64,000 bases of DNA from an uncultured delta proteobacterium (GTDB lineage Bacteria; Myxococcota_A; Polyangia; Polyangiales; Polyangiaceae): assembly GCA_963696385.1 (NCBI GenBank), contig CAVOKF010000008.1, positions 448,001 through 512,000 of the forward strand, read 5' to 3'. A program made the position numbers. This document shows positions 1-48,000 of this stretch, piece by piece; within the stretch, counting starts at the first letter, position 1; each line of letters begins with the position of its first letter.

Positions 1-3000
1 CGTGATCGAACGATCGGTTCTCACCGATGATGACCAGGACGTGCTTGATGGGCGTCTTGGTCCTGTCGTCGTTCGTGCCCTTCTTGGAGTCCGTCTCCGC
101 GAACGATGTGTTGGCCGCGGCCGGCGCCGACGGGGCGGCGGCAGCCCCGATCCACCCGAGGCCCGTCAAAATCCACAGAGCTGTCTGCTTACGCATGGTT
201 CGATATCCTCCTCAATGAAAATATGCCAGTTGCTGGGATCGCCCATTCTCGACTCGGCGCCTCCGCATCGCCTACGAGCACTCGTCGTGCCAGACCTCTC
301 GTATGCCGACTTTCGTATTCGGATCCTGCCGATCCGCGTTACCGACCTCCGAAAGCGCGTAGGCGCAGACCTCCGAATTTCCGATGGCGACCTCCGAATT
401 CCGGAATCGCCGAGGCTGGCTTCTTCAGCGGAACTGCGCGTCCGTCAGCGTCCCCAAAAACGCCACGATGGCGTCGATCTCTGAATCGTCGAGCGCCGGG
501 GTTCCGCCTCGGCGGCGGTTGTACGGAGCTTTATCCACGTTGACGTTGTCTCGATATTCGGTGGGTATGTCGTCGAATGCGCCGGATTTGTACCAGCGCT
601 CAGGATGGGTATCCCGCGTCGCATAAAAGGCAATGACGTCTCGAAGTTTGGAAAAAACGCCGTTGTGCATGAAATACTGCCGGACGGCCACGTTGCGCAG
701 CGACGGCGTTCGGAACCGCCCGCAGAACTCTGCGGTCTTGGCCTTGTAGTCGGCGTCGCCGCGTTCGCAGAGTCCCAGATCGAAGTACTTCGGGTCGCGG
801 GTCGCCGGCAGCGCGCGATTGCGCGGCGCCGCCACGGCGTCGAATTCGTAATCCGTGAAGAGCGAGGCCTTGGGGTCCGGGGAGCGATCGTTGAGCTTGT
901 GGCATCCGGAGCAGGCGCCCTTCGCGGGATCCTTGAAGAGCTTGAGGCCCTGCGCTTCGATCGGCGTAAACTGATCGCGGCCGCGAATGCAATCGTCGTA
1001 TCGAGACGAAAACGGCGACATCTCCGGACTCAAGAGATAGGCGTTCACCGCGTCGCCGAGAGCTTTGAGGACGGCATTCGGATCGGGGTCGTCCAGAACC
1101 GAGCCGAACTCCCTCCGGAAATCCGCGGCATACGGGCCCGCGATGGTTGCGGCGATGCGTCCCGCGTCGCCCCCGTTCATCTCGTCGGGGTTCAATAGCG
1201 GCTGCTTCACCAGGTCGACGAGGGAGTCGACCCGGCCGTCCCAGAAGAATCCCGCGTACGCGCCTACGAGCGGAGCGTCCTCCTCCCAGTGAAGGTGGAA
1301 TTTACGAACGAATCGCAGATACAGCGCCGACGGCGTGTTGCGCTTCGCAAAATGATTCGGCCGGCTGCCCAACGCAACGCCGTTGGTCGAACCATGATTG
1401 CCGGCAAAGGCGCGCTTCGGATCGTGGCAGCTGGCGCAACTGGTTCCTTCTGGAACGGAAAGGCGCGGATCGAAGAACAGGGTGCGGCCCAACGACACGC
1501 GCGCGTCACTGGCTTGACCCGAAGGGGTCCCCCCGGCATCGGCCGAGGCAGCGGCCGCCGGATGGGGCTTGTGAGGGCTGGGTGCGGAAGCCGGGGGGCG
1601 AGCGGCCGCGGTCGCCGTAACGAACGCCGATGAAGCGGCCCGAACTCCAAACATCGCGCCGAGCACCACGAGACCGCCGGCGATTGCGGCGCCGACTCGC
1701 TGCCACGCGGTTCGGTGGGGCCTCATCCACGGTCGGCTTCTAGCAATGGTGAGAAGGGACCAAGTGACGATTTGGCAAAAGCGCGGTTGCCATCGTGTTC
1801 GACGAACGTGTTCCTAGCGTCGATGCGGCGGGGCGCTCCTCGCGGGGAGCCTCCGGGCCTCGCGAAACCTCGTGACGTGGCGCAGCGGCCCTCATGTTCG
1901 CGATCCGCCCGGGTGCCGCTTTGCCGAGCGCGAGCGGGAAAGCGGCAAACCTAGGCTCATCCGTCCAAGGGCATCGCAAGTTTGCACGGGACTTTATTAA
2001 GGCAATACTGCTTGGAATTCGTCGAGACGGCGTAGCGGCCCTCTCGGCGAGAGCCGCCCCCATGCGCCCAAGCCGCCGCCGCATTGTTCCGCCCGCATTC
2101 GTTGTCTGGATCTCTGCGGCGATCCTCGGCGCGTGCGCCGCCGATCCGGGGGACGCGGCGAAACCGGTTCAGGCGAGCGCCCCGGTCGTGCCCGCGATCG
2201 ACTCCGGCAGCCCGATGACGACCGACGAAGATGGCCCCTCTTACGCGGCCGGCGACGGGTCGGCGGCGCCGAGCGGCGACGACGCGACCGCGCCCCTCGA
2301 GAGCGACGCCAGTACGACCGGGGCTCCCGACACGAGCTCCGGCCCCGAGGTCAGTACGACCCCGACGGACGACGCAACGCCGGAAGATGCTCCCACCGCG
2401 ACTCAAGACGCCGGAGCCGAGCCGAGCGATGCGAGCACGACCCCGGCGCGGGATGGCGCATCGGCTCCGGACGCGCGCACCGCGCCCGCCCAGGACGCGG
2501 GCGACGCGACGGCCCCACCGCCGGCGGACGCCGGACCCGGCTGCACGCCCGGAGCGACGGTCGTGGTCCTGATGCCGTCGGGGCCGTGCGGCAACTCGGG
2601 CAACCTCATGCCGGGAAACGGCACACTCGGGGCCGTCTGTGTCGAGTTCCACGGGAGCGTGCCCAACGGCTGGAACGCGTCGAACGCCTCCGGATGCTCG
2701 ATCACCTTGACCGGTGGCGGCACGCCGCAGACCGTGACGGGAAGCGCCGCGATGAGCAATCAGCCGCCCATGCCGGCAGGAGCCAACGGGTACGTCTACT
2801 GGAACCTGACGGCAGGCTGCATCGACTACGCGTCGATTCAATGCTTTTAGGGCGACGCACCCGGACCGCGGCTACGGATTGAGCCAGGGGCGGATCACAG
2901 CCCCTTTCGTTTGAGCATCTCGACCAGCGTGGTGCGATTGAGCCCTAGAAGCTGCGCCGCTCGATTCTTGTTTCGACCGGTGCGCTCGAGCGCCTGGGCG

Positions 3001-45000: not shown

Positions 45001-48000
45001 CGTCCGGATCGGCCGAGTACATGCTGGAGGACGGGGTGTTCCCGTTGCCCGACGTGGAAACCCGGTTTCAAGACTTCGTTCCGGCGCCGTATCCGCAGGT
45101 GCAAGCGAAGTCATTCGTCCCGTACTTGTCGGTACTCGACGTCTTGCTGCAAGTGGGGATCGACGCCGCTCGGGCCGCCATCCGCGAAGGCAGCCGCGAG
45201 TTTCGAAGTTGGGATGCCGCCACGGCGGCCATCCAGCCGCGAAACGCCGGCGGCCGAGCGATCGACGCCGCATGACCTAGGATCGGAGAGGAGCCCCGTG
45301 AATTCGAGTTTTTGCATCGGAAATCGCACGATCGGCAGAGGGCAACCCGTATTCATCGTGGCCGAGATGAGCGCCAACCACGGCCGAAGTCTCGACCACG
45401 CGATCCGTGTCCTTCGCGCGGCGAAGGAATGCGGTGCCGACGCCGTAAAGATCCAGACCTACACGGCCGACACGATGACCCTGAACATCGATCGGCCCCC
45501 CTTCGTGGTGAAGCTCGACGCGTGGGCGGGCCGAACGCTCTACGACCTCTATCAGGAAGCGCACACCCCGTGGGAGTGGCATCCGAAACTCAAGTCGGTC
45601 GCCGACGACCTCGGCATTCCGCTCTTCTCTTCGCCGTTCGACAGCACGGCGGTCGATCTGCTCGAGGAGCTGCACGTGCCCGCGTACAAGGTCGCGTCGT
45701 TCGAGCTCACGGATCATGCGCTTTTGCGCCGGATTGCGCAGACGGGCAAACCGGTCATCGCTTCGACCGGCATGGCGCGGCTCGACGAGATTGCCGAGGC
45801 CGTGAGCGTCATCCGAAAGTCGGCCCCCGGATCAGGCCTCGCGCTTCTCAAGTGCACGAGCGTCTATCCGGCCGATCCGCGGGAGGCAAACCTGCGAACC
45901 ATCGCTCATTTGGCCGAGACGTTCGACTGCGTGGCGGGGCTTTCCGATCACACGATGTCGGCCGCGGTTCCGATCGCGTCGGTCGCGCTCGGTGCTTGCA
46001 TCATCGAAAAGCACTTCTGTCTTTCCCGTTCGGAAGGCGGACCGGATTCGGCATTTTCGCTCGAGCCCGACGAATTGCGCGCGCTCGTAAGGGACGTGAG
46101 GCTGACGGAGGCGGCACTCGGCCGGGTGAGCTACGAGCTCAGCGCGTCGGAACAGAAAAGCCGCGCGTACCGCCGCTCTCTCTTCGTCGTCAAAGACGTG
46201 GCCAAGGGCGAGGTGCTCGATTCGCGCAGCGTTCGCGCGCTGCGCCCGGGAGACGGGCTCGAGCCCAAGTATCTCTCGGTCGCTCTCGGCCGCCGCGCCG
46301 CGTGCGCCATCGCTCGCGGCACGCCGCTCGGCTGGGCCCATCTCGGCGAATCGATCGAAGGGGGATCGGACCCGACCCGGAAATGACGCGCGTGCTTTTC
46401 CGGTGCGACGGCACCACGAGCGTCGGGCTGGGCCACGTCAGCCGATGCGCCGGCCTCGCAGAGGCGTTCGACGAAATGGGCATACGGGCGACGTTTTACG
46501 GGCAGTACAACGAGGCCGCCCTTTGCCTTTTGCAGTCTTGTGGGGCCGACATTGCGCCGTCGCACGGAAACGTCGCGGGATCGATAGCCGATGCGGACGA
46601 GACGCTGCGACTCGCAGCGACCCTCGACGTCTTGGGCGTGGTGCTCGACGGCTACACCTTCGGCGAGGCTTTTCTCGAGGCGCATGCGGAAGGCCGGACC
46701 GGCCGCAGGTTGATGATCATCGACGATTTTGCCGACCAAGACCGCTATCCGCGCGGGGCTCGCATCCTCAATTCGACGCTGCAGGCCCAAGCCATGACGT
46801 ATCGGGGCGACGAGCTAAAGGTCTTTGCGGGACCCGAGTACCTTCTGGTGCGGCGCGCCCTGCGCACGCTGCGCGCAAGGCCGCGGCCGCCTTCGGGCCG
46901 CTCGACCGTGCGGTGTCTGGTCGCGCTGGGTGGGGTCGACCGGTTTGGCCGCACCCTCTCGGTGGTCGATGCGCTGGCCGCGCTTGCCATTCCACCCGAC
47001 GTCGATGTCGTTCTGTCCGAGAGCGCGCCGATCCATGGTCGCGTCGCCGATCGCCTCGCACGATGGCCGGCCGATGGGCGGCTGTTTGGCCGACTGCCGA
47101 CTTTGGCGGATCGCTTCGCCGACAGCGATGCGTGCATCACGGCCGGCGGTTTGACGATGTACGAGGCTTGCTTTCTCGGACGTCCGGTCGCCGTCTGCCC
47201 GCAGTCGTCGCGCGAAGCCGAGGATGCCGCGTTCGCGGCCCGAGCGGGGGTCGCGGTGGATCTGAGCGCCGGCCTCGAAGCGGGGCGAGAGGCTCTGACG
47301 GAGGCGCTTGCGCGCTTTTTCACGCCCCAATCGTTTGACGCGCTTCGAAGCGCCCTGGCAGGCCGCTTCCCCGCGGATCCCACGCACGCGGCCGCAATCG
47401 CGTTGACGGACCGCTGACCCATCCGAACCGCGACGTTATCGGCCCATCGTCACGAAGGCGTCATACGTGGCCCATAACCACACGCTCGCCCTCGCCCTCG
47501 TCAAGGGCAGTGAGCAACATGGCAAGCGAGTCGCCCGGAGCGTTTCAGCCGGAGCCTCCGGAGTCGATCTTGTCGTCGAGCCTCGCATTGCCACTGCGCC
47601 GCTTTACCGCAATGGAGCACGTGTCGAACGCGCTCTTCGTAGCGATGCATCTGTCGCTGCTCTTCGTGTTCGTCGTGCCTCTGACCTGGAAGGTCGCAGC
47701 GCTCGCCGCGGGCGGATACGGACTGCGGATGTGGGCGATTACCGGCGGTTACCATCGCTACTTTGCACACCGCACCTACAAGACGAGTCGAGCGTTCCAG
47801 CTTGTGCTGGCGATCCTCGGCGCCACGGCCATGCAAAACGGGCCCATCTGGTGGGCCAGCGTGCACCGCCGGCACCATAAATATTCCGATGGTCCGAAGG
47901 ACCCTCATTCACCGGTCCGACGGGGCTTCTGGCACGCGCACGTCGGCTGGGTGTTCGACCTGACCTCGGCGCGGCCGCGCGACGATTCAAACGTGCGCGA

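Follow-up and report, generated by a model that had tools for sequence, protein, structure and literature searches.

A flagellar gene cluster and an adjoining glycosylation island

We analysed a stretch of 64,000 nucleotides (the window) from an uncultured bacterium of soil and peat that is related to the gliding myxobacteria. Positions 2895-47417 hold the genes for a full flagellum, together with one for a Maf-like protein and most of those for a pseudaminic-acid pathway, as named by Pfam and NCBIfam. This agrees with an earlier note, which had claimed a complete flagellar cluster here, inside a contig (C8) of about 887 kb; the contig measures 886,522 bases, with the cluster in its middle. 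A tRNA-Glu gene lies about 3.8 kb ahead of the window start. The cluster opens with a minus-strand block (scores are set against the cut-off of the family model where one is given):

2895..4304, minus: sigma-54-dependent transcriptional activator (EBP); Sigma54_activat 235 bits, HTH_8; no equivalog at cut-off
4175..4684, minus: FliW; PF02623 86.8 bits
4630..4920, minus: CsrA; PF02599 55.3 bits; long C-terminal tail overlapping the fliW start
4972..5859, minus: FlgL; TIGR02550 164 bits, above 127
5859..7253, minus: FlgK; TIGR02492 291 bits, above 171
7257..7598, minus: FlgN-like candidate chaperone; PF05130 E 0.0038, below cut-off
7603..7896, minus: FlgM anti-sigma-28 factor; TIGR03824 51.9 bits, above 40.75
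7972..8274, minus: small ORF, weak rod-binding (FlgJ N-terminal-like) domain; PF10135 E 0.0095; coupled to flgI
8271..9404, minus: FlgI, P ring; PF02119 397 bits
9408..10109, minus: FlgH, L ring; PF02107 162.6 bits
10106..10855, minus: FlgA; PF13144 25.9 bits, above 23.8
10852..11718, minus: FlgG, distal rod; TIGR02488 333 bits, above 253
11801..12529, minus: MotB stator subunit; MotB_plug and OmpA domains; YADFITLL
12536..13333, minus: MotA stator subunit; NF006583 284 bits, above 237
13334..13645, minus: FlbD; PF06289 70 bits
13676..13690, minus: weak sigma-54-like promoter motif TGGC-N7-TTGC; one mismatch to consensus, 31 bases upstream of flbD

The plus-strand flagellar block follows:

13740..14141, plus: FlgB; TIGR01396 60.3 bits, above 59.05
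14138..14584, plus: FlgC; TIGR01395 162.8 bits, above 102
14587..14901, plus: FliE; TIGR00205 66.4 bits, above 30
14894..16615, plus: FliF, MS ring; TIGR00206 272.5 bits, above 129.75
16667..17638, plus: FliG; FliG_N, FliG_M, FliG_C; TIGR00207 205 bits, below 226.7
17635..18312, plus: FliH; PF02108 36.5 bits, above 24.1
18312..19641, plus: FliI ATPase; N-terminal barrel and ATPase in successive frames; extra base at 18766; Walker A
19638..20076, plus: FliJ, by position only; extra base at 19958
20073..21503, plus: FliK candidate; Flg_hook 24.5 bits, below the 29.8 cut-off
21514..22236, plus: FlgD; FlgD, FlgD_ig and Tudor domains; extra base at 22174; true stop near 22225
22282..23571, plus: FlgE, hook; FlgE_D2 93.8 bits; covered by RNA-library contigs
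23608..24105, plus: FliL; PF03748 47.4 bits
24102..24968, plus: FliM, divergent; FliMN_C 57 bits; FliM 21.3 bits, below 27; TIGR01397 56.5 bits, below 219.6
25007..25369, plus: FliN; TIGR02480 97.7 bits, above 84
25366..26043, plus: FliO; PF04347 39.7 bits, above 22
26040..26693, plus: FliP; TIGR01103 273 bits, above 217
26690..26959, plus: FliQ; PF01313 66.9 bits
26956..27741, plus: FliR; PF01311 150 bits
27738..28823, plus: FlhB; PF01312 309.6 bits; NPTH at residue 267
28820..30916, plus: FlhA; FHIPEP profile positions 1-524 of 657 only; extra base at 30460; true stop near 30905
30889..32121, plus: FlhF GTPase; TIGR03499 172.7 bits, cut-off 174.15
32118..32834, plus: FliA, sigma-28; TIGR02479 215 bits, above 189.6
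32838..33567, plus: FlgF, proximal rod; N and C halves in two frames; extra base at 33222
33564..33905, plus: small ORF, weak HDOD-like match; PF08668 E 0.03
34100..34780, plus: FlgJ-like glucosaminidase; PF01832 47 bits, above 30.2
34932..35786, plus: flagellin, 284 aa; Flagellin_N and Flagellin_C
35929..37284, plus: FliD, filament cap; FliD_N and FliD_C
37373..37804, plus: FliS; TIGR00208 76.7 bits, above 53.75

These genes encode the MS and C rings (FliF, FliG, FliM, FliN), the rod (FliE, FlgB, FlgC, FlgF, FlgG), the P and L rings (FlgI, FlgH, FlgA), the export gate (FlhA, FlhB, FliO, FliP, FliQ, FliR), the ATPase complex (FliH, FliI and, by position only, FliJ), the hook and junctions (FlgD, FlgE, the candidate FliK, FlgK, FlgL), the filament (one flagellin, FliD, FliS), the stator (MotA, MotB) and the regulators (the sigma-54 activator, FliA/FlgM, FliW/CsrA, FlhF). 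Gene boundaries are mostly short start/stop overlaps; the ATG of the rod-binding ORF at 8274, for example, overlaps the end of flgI, and the true start of the sigma-54 activator is probably ATG 4148 or TTG 4160. The flagellin is the only one in the genome, and an own-genome search matched the flagellin gene and FlgL alone. The FliI Walker A, FlhB NPTH, FliG MFTF and MotB Asp are all present in the protein sequences; we take these to be characteristic motifs of those proteins, the Asp in YADFITLL presumably being the conserved one of MotB. FliJ, FliK and FlgN had only been guessed before: FliJ has no family match in the profile search, and the matches of FliK and FlgN are weak.

A syntenic cluster is present in the cultured Labilithrix luteola DSM 27648, where 37 of the 55 query pieces match at 31-74% identity. 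There, a homologue of the sigma-54 activator adjoins fliS (58% identity), a homologue of the FlgN-like ORF adjoins flgK (E 2e-10), and a glucosaminidase homologue, 60% identical, occupies the same position.

Downstream of fliS lies the glycosylation island:

37811..39277, plus: Maf-like (MptE-like) putative flagellin glycosyltransferase; PF01973 120.4 bits, above 34.6; PseD domain model 65 bits, below 670
39506..40420, minus: aldo/keto reductase; PF00248 95 bits
40414..41211, minus: short-chain dehydrogenase; adh_short_C2 143.8 bits
41341..42516, plus: PseB; TIGR03589 475.7 bits, above 407.75
42516..43760, plus: PseC-like aminotransferase; TIGR03588 417.5 bits, cut-off 423.5
43748..44494, plus: cytidylyltransferase, PseF-like role; CTP_transf_3 96.9 bits; PseF model 35 bits, below 205.7
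44415..45275, plus: WbqC-like protein; PF08889 171.5 bits
45214..46386, plus: PseI, pseudaminic acid synthase; TIGR03586 469 bits, above 340.25
46383..47417, plus: PseG-like hydrolase; TIGR03590 129.8 bits, below 153.55

The Maf-like protein also matched structure 5mu5_A (E 0.0012), and the minus-strand pair of reductase and dehydrogenase genes separates maf from pseB. The earlier note had described a Maf-like gene followed by pseudaminic-acid genes. Maf, PseB, PseC, PseI, PseG and a cytidylyltransferase were indeed found, with PseC, PseG and PseF below their curated NCBIfam cut-offs; no PseH reached the cut-off anywhere in the genome in the profile search. PseI is over its cut-off in just 2 of 31 genus genomes, and the glycosylation island is the rarer part of the locus.

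Frame breaks in the assembled cluster

The content and clustering of the set stood as described; what the earlier note had not mentioned is that five of the genes are frame-broken as assembled. Single extra bases break the frame at 18766 (fliI), 19958 (fliJ), 22174 (flgD), 30460 (flhA) and 33222 (flgF). One possibility could be that the cluster is a decaying relic, with real frameshifts and a flagellum lost in this strain. The broken genes are essential or important, the apparatus is lost altogether in half of the genus, and rpoB and rpoC (8.6 kb together) are intact, which is a little surprising for an error rate of about one per 4-6 kb. However, the extra bases disappear wherever other data cover them. 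We compared the window with contigs from three other DNA studies (X1, about 99.5% identical to the window, X3 and X6), with contigs from an RNA library (X13) and with the public genome of a related species (L001), and all five bases are absent in every covering contig and in L001: those in fliI and fliJ in X1, X3 and L001; that in flgD in X1, X3, X6, X13 and L001; that in flhA in X1, X13 and L001; and that in flgF in X1, X6, X13 and L001. Without them, FliI (442 aa), FliJ (145), FlgD (347), FlhA (694) and FlgF (242) are full length. Unlike in this assembly, fliI and flgF of L. luteola are each in one frame.

Also against decay, all five breaks are insertions, 3/5 of them at GATC motifs, and the genome as a whole is rich in frame-switch candidates: 237, a density of 41.3 per Mb of coding sequence, spread over all eight contigs, about 4.6 times the rate in 65 control loci from relatives (8.9 per Mb). 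Among the ten strongest candidates elsewhere, three are one protein over two frames (an AcrB-family transporter, Hsp70 and SMC). Finally, dN/dS was 0.112 over 17 gene pieces compared with L001; judging from these sequences, the flagellar genes are under purifying selection. A relic is therefore highly improbable, and the comparisons indicate that the five frame breaks are single-base insertion errors of the assembly, not mutations of the organism or decay.

Distribution and inheritance

The claim that about half of the Polyangiaceae species genomes have these genes holds, with FlgE_D2 in 182/382 family genomes and 43 of the 89 genera. The other tallies were approximately right: the genus count is the same (15/30), the family count is the one just given, and the phylum count is now 158 of 400 sampled genomes. 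FliF and FlgE are co-present or co-absent within the genus (identical, 16/31 genomes). For FlhA, identity is 79% within the genus and 60-71% across the family; it is 51-57% at the level of order and class, where 75% is the only exception, and 44-56% at that of the phylum. This drop with taxonomic distance fits genes that are old, have been passed down mostly vertically and were lost repeatedly.

The patchiness in genus and family could instead reflect a recent horizontal acquisition into the lineage rather than inheritance within the Polyangiaceae, and the exception just mentioned (G646, from another family) exceeds all family-level FlhA values. Nevertheless, we regard such an acquisition as quite improbable: GC content is flat over the window (0.62-0.71), the cluster is mid-contig, the L. 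luteola synteny spans about 37 genes, FlhA identity declines by taxonomic rank, and FlgE reaches nearly half of the genera. Since the genome was binned from a metagenome and its contamination is estimated at 2.78%, a mis-binned contig from another flagellated organism was also considered. There is hardly any chance of this, given the length of the contig, the closest FliP relatives (80 loci, almost all titled Polyangiaceae, Polyangiales, Myxococcales or Labilithrix) and the same cluster on the complete L. luteola chromosome. We put at roughly 75% the probability that this is a genuine Polyangiaceae flagellar regulon, inherited within the lineage and kept by selection.

Function and proposed working

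RNA-library contigs of 99% identity or more match parts of fliF, flgD, flgE, fliM, fliQ/fliR, flhA and fliA, span the flgF break at 33222 and are in frame at 3/3 break sites covered; note that this library was compared as contigs without a silent-stretch control, so that DNA carry-over is possible. The flagellar cluster is real and probably functional; its gene set is complete and clustered, and the earlier prediction of swimming is reasonable.

An intact machine could, however, serve secretion, adhesion, surface-sensing or a rare life stage instead of swimming. Cultured Polyangiales are not known to have been reported as swimmers, and the literature search gave no L. luteola paper. Moreover, a motif search of FliM did not find the canonical N-terminal CheY-binding motif, and Pfam and NCBIfam found no FlhG in the cluster, and none between flhF and fliA. 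We nonetheless consider a non-swimming role unlikely, because the set includes the filament with its cap and chaperone, the junction proteins, the L and P rings, the stator and FliL, all of them under constraint, which exceeds the needs of a secretion-only system, and because related members of the phylum swim or bear flagella. A 55.7 kb flagellar cluster was published in 2008 for Anaeromyxobacter dehalogenans, with swimming noted for strain K (PMC2330069), and electron microscopy of Persicimonas caeni (Bradymonadales) was reported in 2020 to reveal flagella (PMC7188933); the Bradymonadales have since been moved to the Myxococcota, according to PMC11509652. In 2021, Myxococcota MAGs were noted to carry genes for flagellar assembly (10.1101/2021.07.06.451402), and a 2026 preprint lists the Myxococcota among motile phyla. 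Since flagella were already known in the phylum, the locus adds a good example to those on record and is not surprising; that it overturns the textbook picture, as had been suggested, is not supported. What the sequence contains is a complete, well-kept swimming-flagellum gene set, with putative filament sugar-coating genes, in a relative of gliders.

A window-wide scan for the sigma-54 consensus found 4 matches against 3.55 expected, so the motif before flbD is not significant alone; the sigma-28 scan, also called not enriched, found 5 against 1.65 expected, none before fliC. We therefore infer the regulatory cascade from gene content only, and the steps that follow from the behaviour of these families elsewhere. 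The sigma-54 activator would switch on the basal-body and hook operons; on hook completion, export of FlgM would free sigma-28 for the late genes, while FliW and CsrA would tune flagellin translation. PseB, PseC, PseG, PseI and the cytidylyltransferase may make a pseudaminic-acid-type sugar, which the Maf-like transferase would put on flagellin. The filament, rotated by a presumably proton-driven MotAB stator, would then allow swimming in water films. Type IV pilus genes are also present in the genome, in which five PilT-family genes are above cut-off, and its 10 CheW-domain matches are found in at least three clusters.

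Organization of the flagellar cluster and the attached island

The window carries one large, ordered flagellar locus, followed directly by genes for sugar synthesis. Profile searches with Pfam and NCBIfam resolved it into the following blocks:

2895-39277, both strands: contiguous flagellar regulon
Minus strand, in order: sigma-54 activator, fliW, csrA, flgL, flgK, FlgN-like ORF, flgM, small rod-binding-like ORF, flgI, flgH, flgA, flgG, motB, motA, flbD
Plus strand, divergent from flbD: flgB, flgC, fliE, fliF, fliG, fliH, fliI, fliJ, fliK, flgD, flgE, fliL, fliM, fliN, fliO, fliP, fliQ, fliR, flhB, flhA, flhF, fliA, flgF, small ORF, FlgJ-like glucosaminidase, fliC, fliD, fliS
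After fliS, ending at 47417: Maf-like gene, two minus-strand oxidoreductases, pseB, pseC-like gene, cytidylyltransferase, WbqC-like gene, pseI, pseG-like gene

Many of the gene boundaries are short start/stop overlaps. FlgB, FlgC, FliE, FliF, FlgG, FlgI, FlgK, FlgL, FlgM, FliN, FliP, FliA, FliS, MotA, PseB and PseI all exceeded the curated NCBIfam equivalog or subfamily cut-offs. FliK, FlgN and the rod-binding ORF gave sub-threshold matches only, and the profile search returned no family match for FliJ. The GC content is uniform across the window (0.62-0.71), which lies in the middle part of an 886,522-base contig of a 6.94 Mb genome assembled in eight contigs.

Two ORFs called from GC3 on the wrong strand (39512-41226 and 33564-33881) were rejected after Pfam and NCBIfam searches of the alternative frames. 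Rfam and tRNA scans gave zero matches inside the cluster. Note that the intergenic stretch between flgF and the FlgJ-like gene (33920-34070) consists of CGACCT/CGACCC-type hexamer repeats. Cross-mapping raised the depth to about 300-fold (at 33,940-34,080), with numerous indels in every run; since this is a simple repeat, the depth peak was rejected as an RNA gene. Further along the window are genes for tRNA-Pro(CGG) (58738-58815, minus strand) and tRNA-Met(CAT) (59869-59944, plus strand), and the tRNA-Glu of the earlier note lies about 3.8 kb ahead of the window start.

The frame breaks in flagellar genes are assembly errors

As assembled, FliI, FliJ and FlgF each require a +1 frame change, and the Pfam match of FlhA ends at profile position 524 of 657. 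We compared window positions 14501-34500 with the contigs of four public runs: X1, X3 and X6, which are DNA runs from three studies, and X13, an Illumina metatranscriptome library. Each of five single extra bases in the window was missing, at full depth, from every run that had a contig at that place.

Table. Extra bases in the window, the runs from which they are absent, and the protein lengths without them
Position; gene; absent from; protein length
18766; fliI; X1, X3; 442 aa
19958; fliJ; X1, X3; 145 aa
22174; flgD; X1, X3, X6, X13; 347 aa
30460; flhA; X1, X13; 694 aa
33222; flgF; X1, X6, X13; 242 aa

In support of this, a blastn comparison with the public genome of a related species (L001, about 93% nucleotide identity) revealed no uncompensated coding indels other than these five bases. 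All five breaks are insertions and three of them lie at a GATC motif, a pattern that we read, by inference, as typical of errors in long-read base calling where the DNA is methylated.

The switches are not confined to the flagellar genes. A codon-signal detector, which flags positions at which the signal moves to another frame of the same strand although the original frame is still open, gave 237 candidates, 129 of them strong, spread over all eight contigs (5.73 Mb of coding signal; 41.3 per Mb), compared with 10 candidates, or 8.9 per Mb, in a control of 65 loci of relatives (1.13 Mb). Shifts of +1 outnumbered those of +2 (152 versus 88); the five +1 candidates of the control all came from four loci (L002, L004, L013 and L029), on contigs of 0.36-4.0 Mb. 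The detector recovered one of the five verified sites, so these genome-wide figures are rough and the true number is several-fold higher; as a rough estimate, there is one insertion error per 4-6 kb of coding sequence. The rpoB (1420 aa) and rpoC (1456 aa) genes are unbroken, in together only 8.6 kb.

Among the ten strongest +1 candidates beyond the window, three are single proteins split over two frames with consecutive profile coordinates: ACR_tran (2-354 and 359-774), HSP70 (104-274 and 292-571) and SMC (SMC_N and the SMC hinge). The other seven (sensors with several domains, TPR proteins, a peptidase and a kinase) fit a split without proving it. Because frame switches also occur outside the flagellar genes, and the extra bases are absent from other data, we attribute the breaks to errors of the assembly and regard the apparent flagellar pseudogenes as artefacts. 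Many false pseudogenes and split ORFs are thus to be expected in the gene table of this assembly, whose unnamed ORFs are unreliable unless checked against other data.

Two further places in the window belong here:

52549-55068 and 51621-52661, minus strand: two ORFs with HYDIN/DUF1573 Ig-like domains, with a +1 switch flagged near 52624
About 61885, minus strand: a weak frame-switch candidate from the detector

The two ORFs of the first entry (51621-55068) probably represent a single large secreted protein that a further assembly error has divided.

The gene set is complete and the flagellum is probably functional

The earlier note had claimed a complete flagellar gene set, and the Pfam and NCBIfam content of 2895-39277 bears this out. 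All six proteins of the export gate (FlhA, FlhB, FliO, FliP, FliQ and FliR) scored above the Pfam gathering threshold, FliP also above its equivalog cut-off, and removing the extra base at 30460 restores FlhA to full length. The axial proteins FlgB, FlgC, FliE, FlgF, FlgG, FlgE, FlgK, FlgL, flagellin and FliD were all found by the Pfam and NCBIfam searches taken together, FlgE with its D2 domain (FlgE_D2, 93.8 bits) and flagellin with both its N and C domains. FlgH, FlgI and FlgA, the outer-membrane bushing of a diderm, are present by Pfam.

FliF and FliN exceeded their cut-offs, and FliG has all three domains at a score slightly under the TIGR00207 cut-off. FliM (24102-24968) is short (288 aa) and divergent, scoring 21.3 bits with Pfam (cut-off 27) and 56.5 with TIGR01397 (cut-off 219.6); a search of its sequence for the usual CheY-binding motif at the N terminus gave no match. 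MotA reached 284 bits with NF006583 (cut-off 237), and MotB has the plug and OmpA domains together with an Asp within YADFITLL, which we take to be the conserved proton-binding residue. This Asp, the NPTH site of FlhB, the Walker A motif of FliI and the MFTF of FliG are all present.

Compared with L001, 17 flagellar gene pieces gave dN 0.020, dS 0.18 and dN/dS 0.112. Per gene, dN/dS was mostly 0.05-0.15; FliL (0.27) and FliO (0.60) were higher. The gene content and these values point to a cluster that is real, complete and probably functional. The genome also gave 10 matches to the CheW domain, in at least three clusters, and five genes of the PilT family passed the cut-off, so that the organism, as predicted, would join pili with a flagellum.

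Regulation

The fliW and csrA genes are adjacent, 3' of flgL (PF02623, 86.8 bits; PF02599, 55.3 bits), with CsrA under the TIGR00202 cut-off. GGA motifs occur in the fliC leader and in its ribosome-binding site. A partner switch between FliW, CsrA and flagellin is known from Bacillus subtilis. As in that switch, fliW and csrA here close a flgM-flgN-flgK-flgL operon; unlike in B. subtilis, csrA precedes fliW, the CsrA protein is extended by a long C-terminal tail, and the binding is putative. Note that CsrA (4630-4968, minus strand) runs about 38 residues past its domain and overlaps the start of fliW by 55 bases; the tail could be a real extension or a further frame error.

Consensus scans of the window for sigma-28 (5 sites found, 1.65 expected from Markov resamples) and sigma-54 (4 found, 3.55 expected) showed no enrichment, and none of the promoter scans placed a site ahead of fliC. 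Since there was no enrichment over the resamples, the regulatory reading of these sites was dropped; the one positionally sensible sigma-54-like site is upstream of flbD. No MinD-like flhG was found in the flhF-fliA interval of the window (30889-32834) or of Labilithrix luteola (loci L093/L094).

A putative flagellin glycosylation island

Flagellin O-glycosylation through Maf proteins and pseudaminic acid is known in Campylobacter, Helicobacter and Aeromonas. As in those genera, a Maf (MptE-like) gene lies here directly 3' of fliS and is accompanied by PseB, PseC, PseG, PseI and a cytidylyltransferase. The Maf-like gene begins 7 bases past the end of fliS, and its product carries the MptE-like domain (PF01973, 120.4 bits against 34.6); it is a putative flagellin glycosyltransferase. 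The grounds for linking the island to flagellin are its position directly 3' of fliS and its Maf-like gene. Among solved structures the Maf-like protein gave one weak sequence match, 5mu5_A (E 0.0012), named "Uncharacterized protein" by its depositors, which we take to be a Maf structure. Flagellin has 57 Ser plus Thr in 284 residues, a count that alone says little.

PseB (TIGR03589, 475.7 bits, cut-off 407.75) and PseI (TIGR03586, 469.1 bits, cut-off 340.25) are clear assignments by score. PseC (417.5 against 423.5) and PseG (129.8 against 153.55) fall under their cut-offs, and the cytidylyltransferase has the CMP-sugar cytidylyltransferase domain with 35.4 bits against 205.7 for the PseF model. 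The best PseH match in the whole genome scored 30.7 bits (cut-off 93.1) and lies outside the island. The island thus differs from those of Campylobacter, Helicobacter and Aeromonas in lacking PseH, in its short Maf (488 aa, far under the PseD model cut-off), and in having an extra WbqC-like gene, an aldo/keto reductase and a dehydrogenase; its sugar may be a Pse derivative. Among the papers listed by a literature search, we found no report of pseudaminic-acid flagellin glycosylation in Myxococcota.

PseI exceeded its cut-off in two of 31 genus genomes (this one and G294); for the family as a whole the count was 27 of 383. Since it occurs in so few genomes of the genus and family, the island is an occasional add-on. 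FlgE was present in 19 of the 26 other PseI-positive family genomes against a background of 182/382, relatives that are not independent samples. Directly past the island, a plus-strand ORF (48540-48779) encodes a MazE-like antitoxin.

Distribution and inheritance

The earlier note's statement that about half of the Polyangiaceae species genomes carry flagellar genes held up: FlgE_D2 was found in 182 of 382 other family genomes. Counting this genome, it was present in 110 of 217 high-quality family genomes and in 43 of 89 genera. It was also found in 15 of 30 genus genomes; the family and genus tallies take in the unpublished G240. FliF exceeded its cut-off in 16 of 31 genus genomes, exactly the FlgE set, and the remaining 15 have neither gene. 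Several of those 15 are nearly complete: G281 (94%), G282 (94%), G283 (95%, unpublished), G286 (100%), G289 (93%), G291 (97%) and G304 (93%). Across the phylum, FlgE_D2 was found in 158 of 400 genomes (an even sample at 80% completeness or more) and in 122 of 255 genera, this genome included, and is absent from some families, for example from all 29 genomes of family f23.

The identity of FlhA to that of the window was 79% in the one genus-mate sampled, 60-71% in 12 family members, 51-54% in eight genomes of the same order, 50-57% in nine of the same class and 44-56% in the rest of the phylum. Because this identity falls by rank, and because the cluster is syntenic with that of L. luteola, the data fit an old cluster that would have been inherited mostly vertically and lost repeatedly as a whole. 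One outlier is G646, of another family in the same order, whose FlhA (75%) is closer than that of every genome sampled from the same family; a transfer could explain it, or an oddity of the taxonomy.

Occurrence and RNA cover

Three studies supplied runs with near-identical DNA, and the labels of these runs are metagenome, soil metagenome and peat metagenome. Parts of fliF, flgD, flgE, fliM, fliQ/fliR, flhA and fliA are covered by RNA-library contigs that match at 99% or more; an RNA contig also crosses the break in flgF (33222), and at 22174, 30460 and 33222 the contigs from RNA have the in-frame version. This cover, scored as presence of contigs rather than depth or gaps and without a silent control stretch, in a kind of library where DNA is possible, is a hint of transcription of the cluster, not a proof.

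Flagella in Myxococcota

Flagella are already known in this phylum, and the cluster is a further example. According to Thomas et al. (2008, PMC2330069), Anaeromyxobacter dehalogenans 2CP-C has a 55.7 kb flagellar cluster, for which the authors argue old inheritance, and swimming was observed in strain K. Like the present locus, that of 2CP-C is one large cluster, which holds motAB, fliC and over 30 further flagellar genes; the same paper gives fliJ, flgN, fliT, flgA, flgJ and fliK as missing and places chemotaxis genes inside the cluster. In contrast, FlgA and a FlgJ-like glucosaminidase are present here, the Maf/Pse island is attached, and the cluster is without che genes. Note that A. dehalogenans belongs to another class of the phylum and that the likeness is drawn from gene content, not from sequence alignment.

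Persicimonas caeni YN101T, of the Bradymonadales, has "unambiguous flagella" by electron microscopy and "flagella and gliding" motility (PMC7188933), and the Bradymonadales have since been reclassified into Myxococcota, according to PMC11509652. The dual motility seen in P. caeni is that predicted here from genes alone, although P. caeni belongs to the distant class Bradymonadia and comes from marine and saltern habitats. Murphy et al. (2021, 10.1101/2021.07.06.451402) mention flagellar assembly genes in Myxococcota MAGs, and a 2026 preprint with GTDB-wide mapping counts Myxococcota as a motile phylum. The phrase "myxobacteria lack flagella" was in print as late as 2018 (PMC6060248). Among the genomes searched, about 40% of those from Myxococcota and around half of the Polyangiaceae species have hook genes, which adds weight against this textbook view. 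In the literature searched, no report was found of flagellar genes in Labilithrix or Polyangiaceae, nor of the flagellar cluster of L. luteola.

We give slightly less than even odds, a probability of about 0.45, to the whole reading: that flagellar swimming is old and widely kept in the class of the classic Sorangiineae rather than a fringe oddity, that about half of the Polyangiaceae species swim, and that a minority of them sugar-coat the filament. If true, about half of the species of this family would have a swimming stage in wet soil and peat, beside type IV pili; the culturable L. luteola DSM 27648 would be among the swimmers; and a minority of lineages, including the present one, would use a Maf enzyme, with a pseudaminic-acid pathway without PseH, to coat the filament.

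A cultured carrier, Labilithrix luteola

The record titles of 80 loci with FliP relatives were nearly all Polyangiaceae, Polyangiales, Myxococcales or Labilithrix, and one of these loci is the complete chromosome of L. luteola DSM 27648. Since this cultured strain has a syntenic cluster, the question of the flagellum can be tested in the laboratory; this carrier and the warning on the error pattern of the assembly are the most useful outcomes of the analysis.

In an 80 kb region of that chromosome, 37 of 55 window query pieces matched at 31-74% identity, with order and orientation kept. L. luteola shares with the window the order from flgL to fliS together with the sigma-54 activator, the divergent flbD/flgB junction, a single flagellin, and a flhF-fliA interval without FlhG. 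Neither its fliI nor its flgF is broken over two frames. No match was found in the 80 kb for Maf, the pse genes, FliW, CsrA, FlgM, FliH, FliJ or FliK; where FliH, FliJ and FliK are expected, there are size-matched gaps between the flanking genes. Unlike the window, L. luteola has an insert of about 25 kb between fliF and fliG (1351544-1376809, loci L091-L093).
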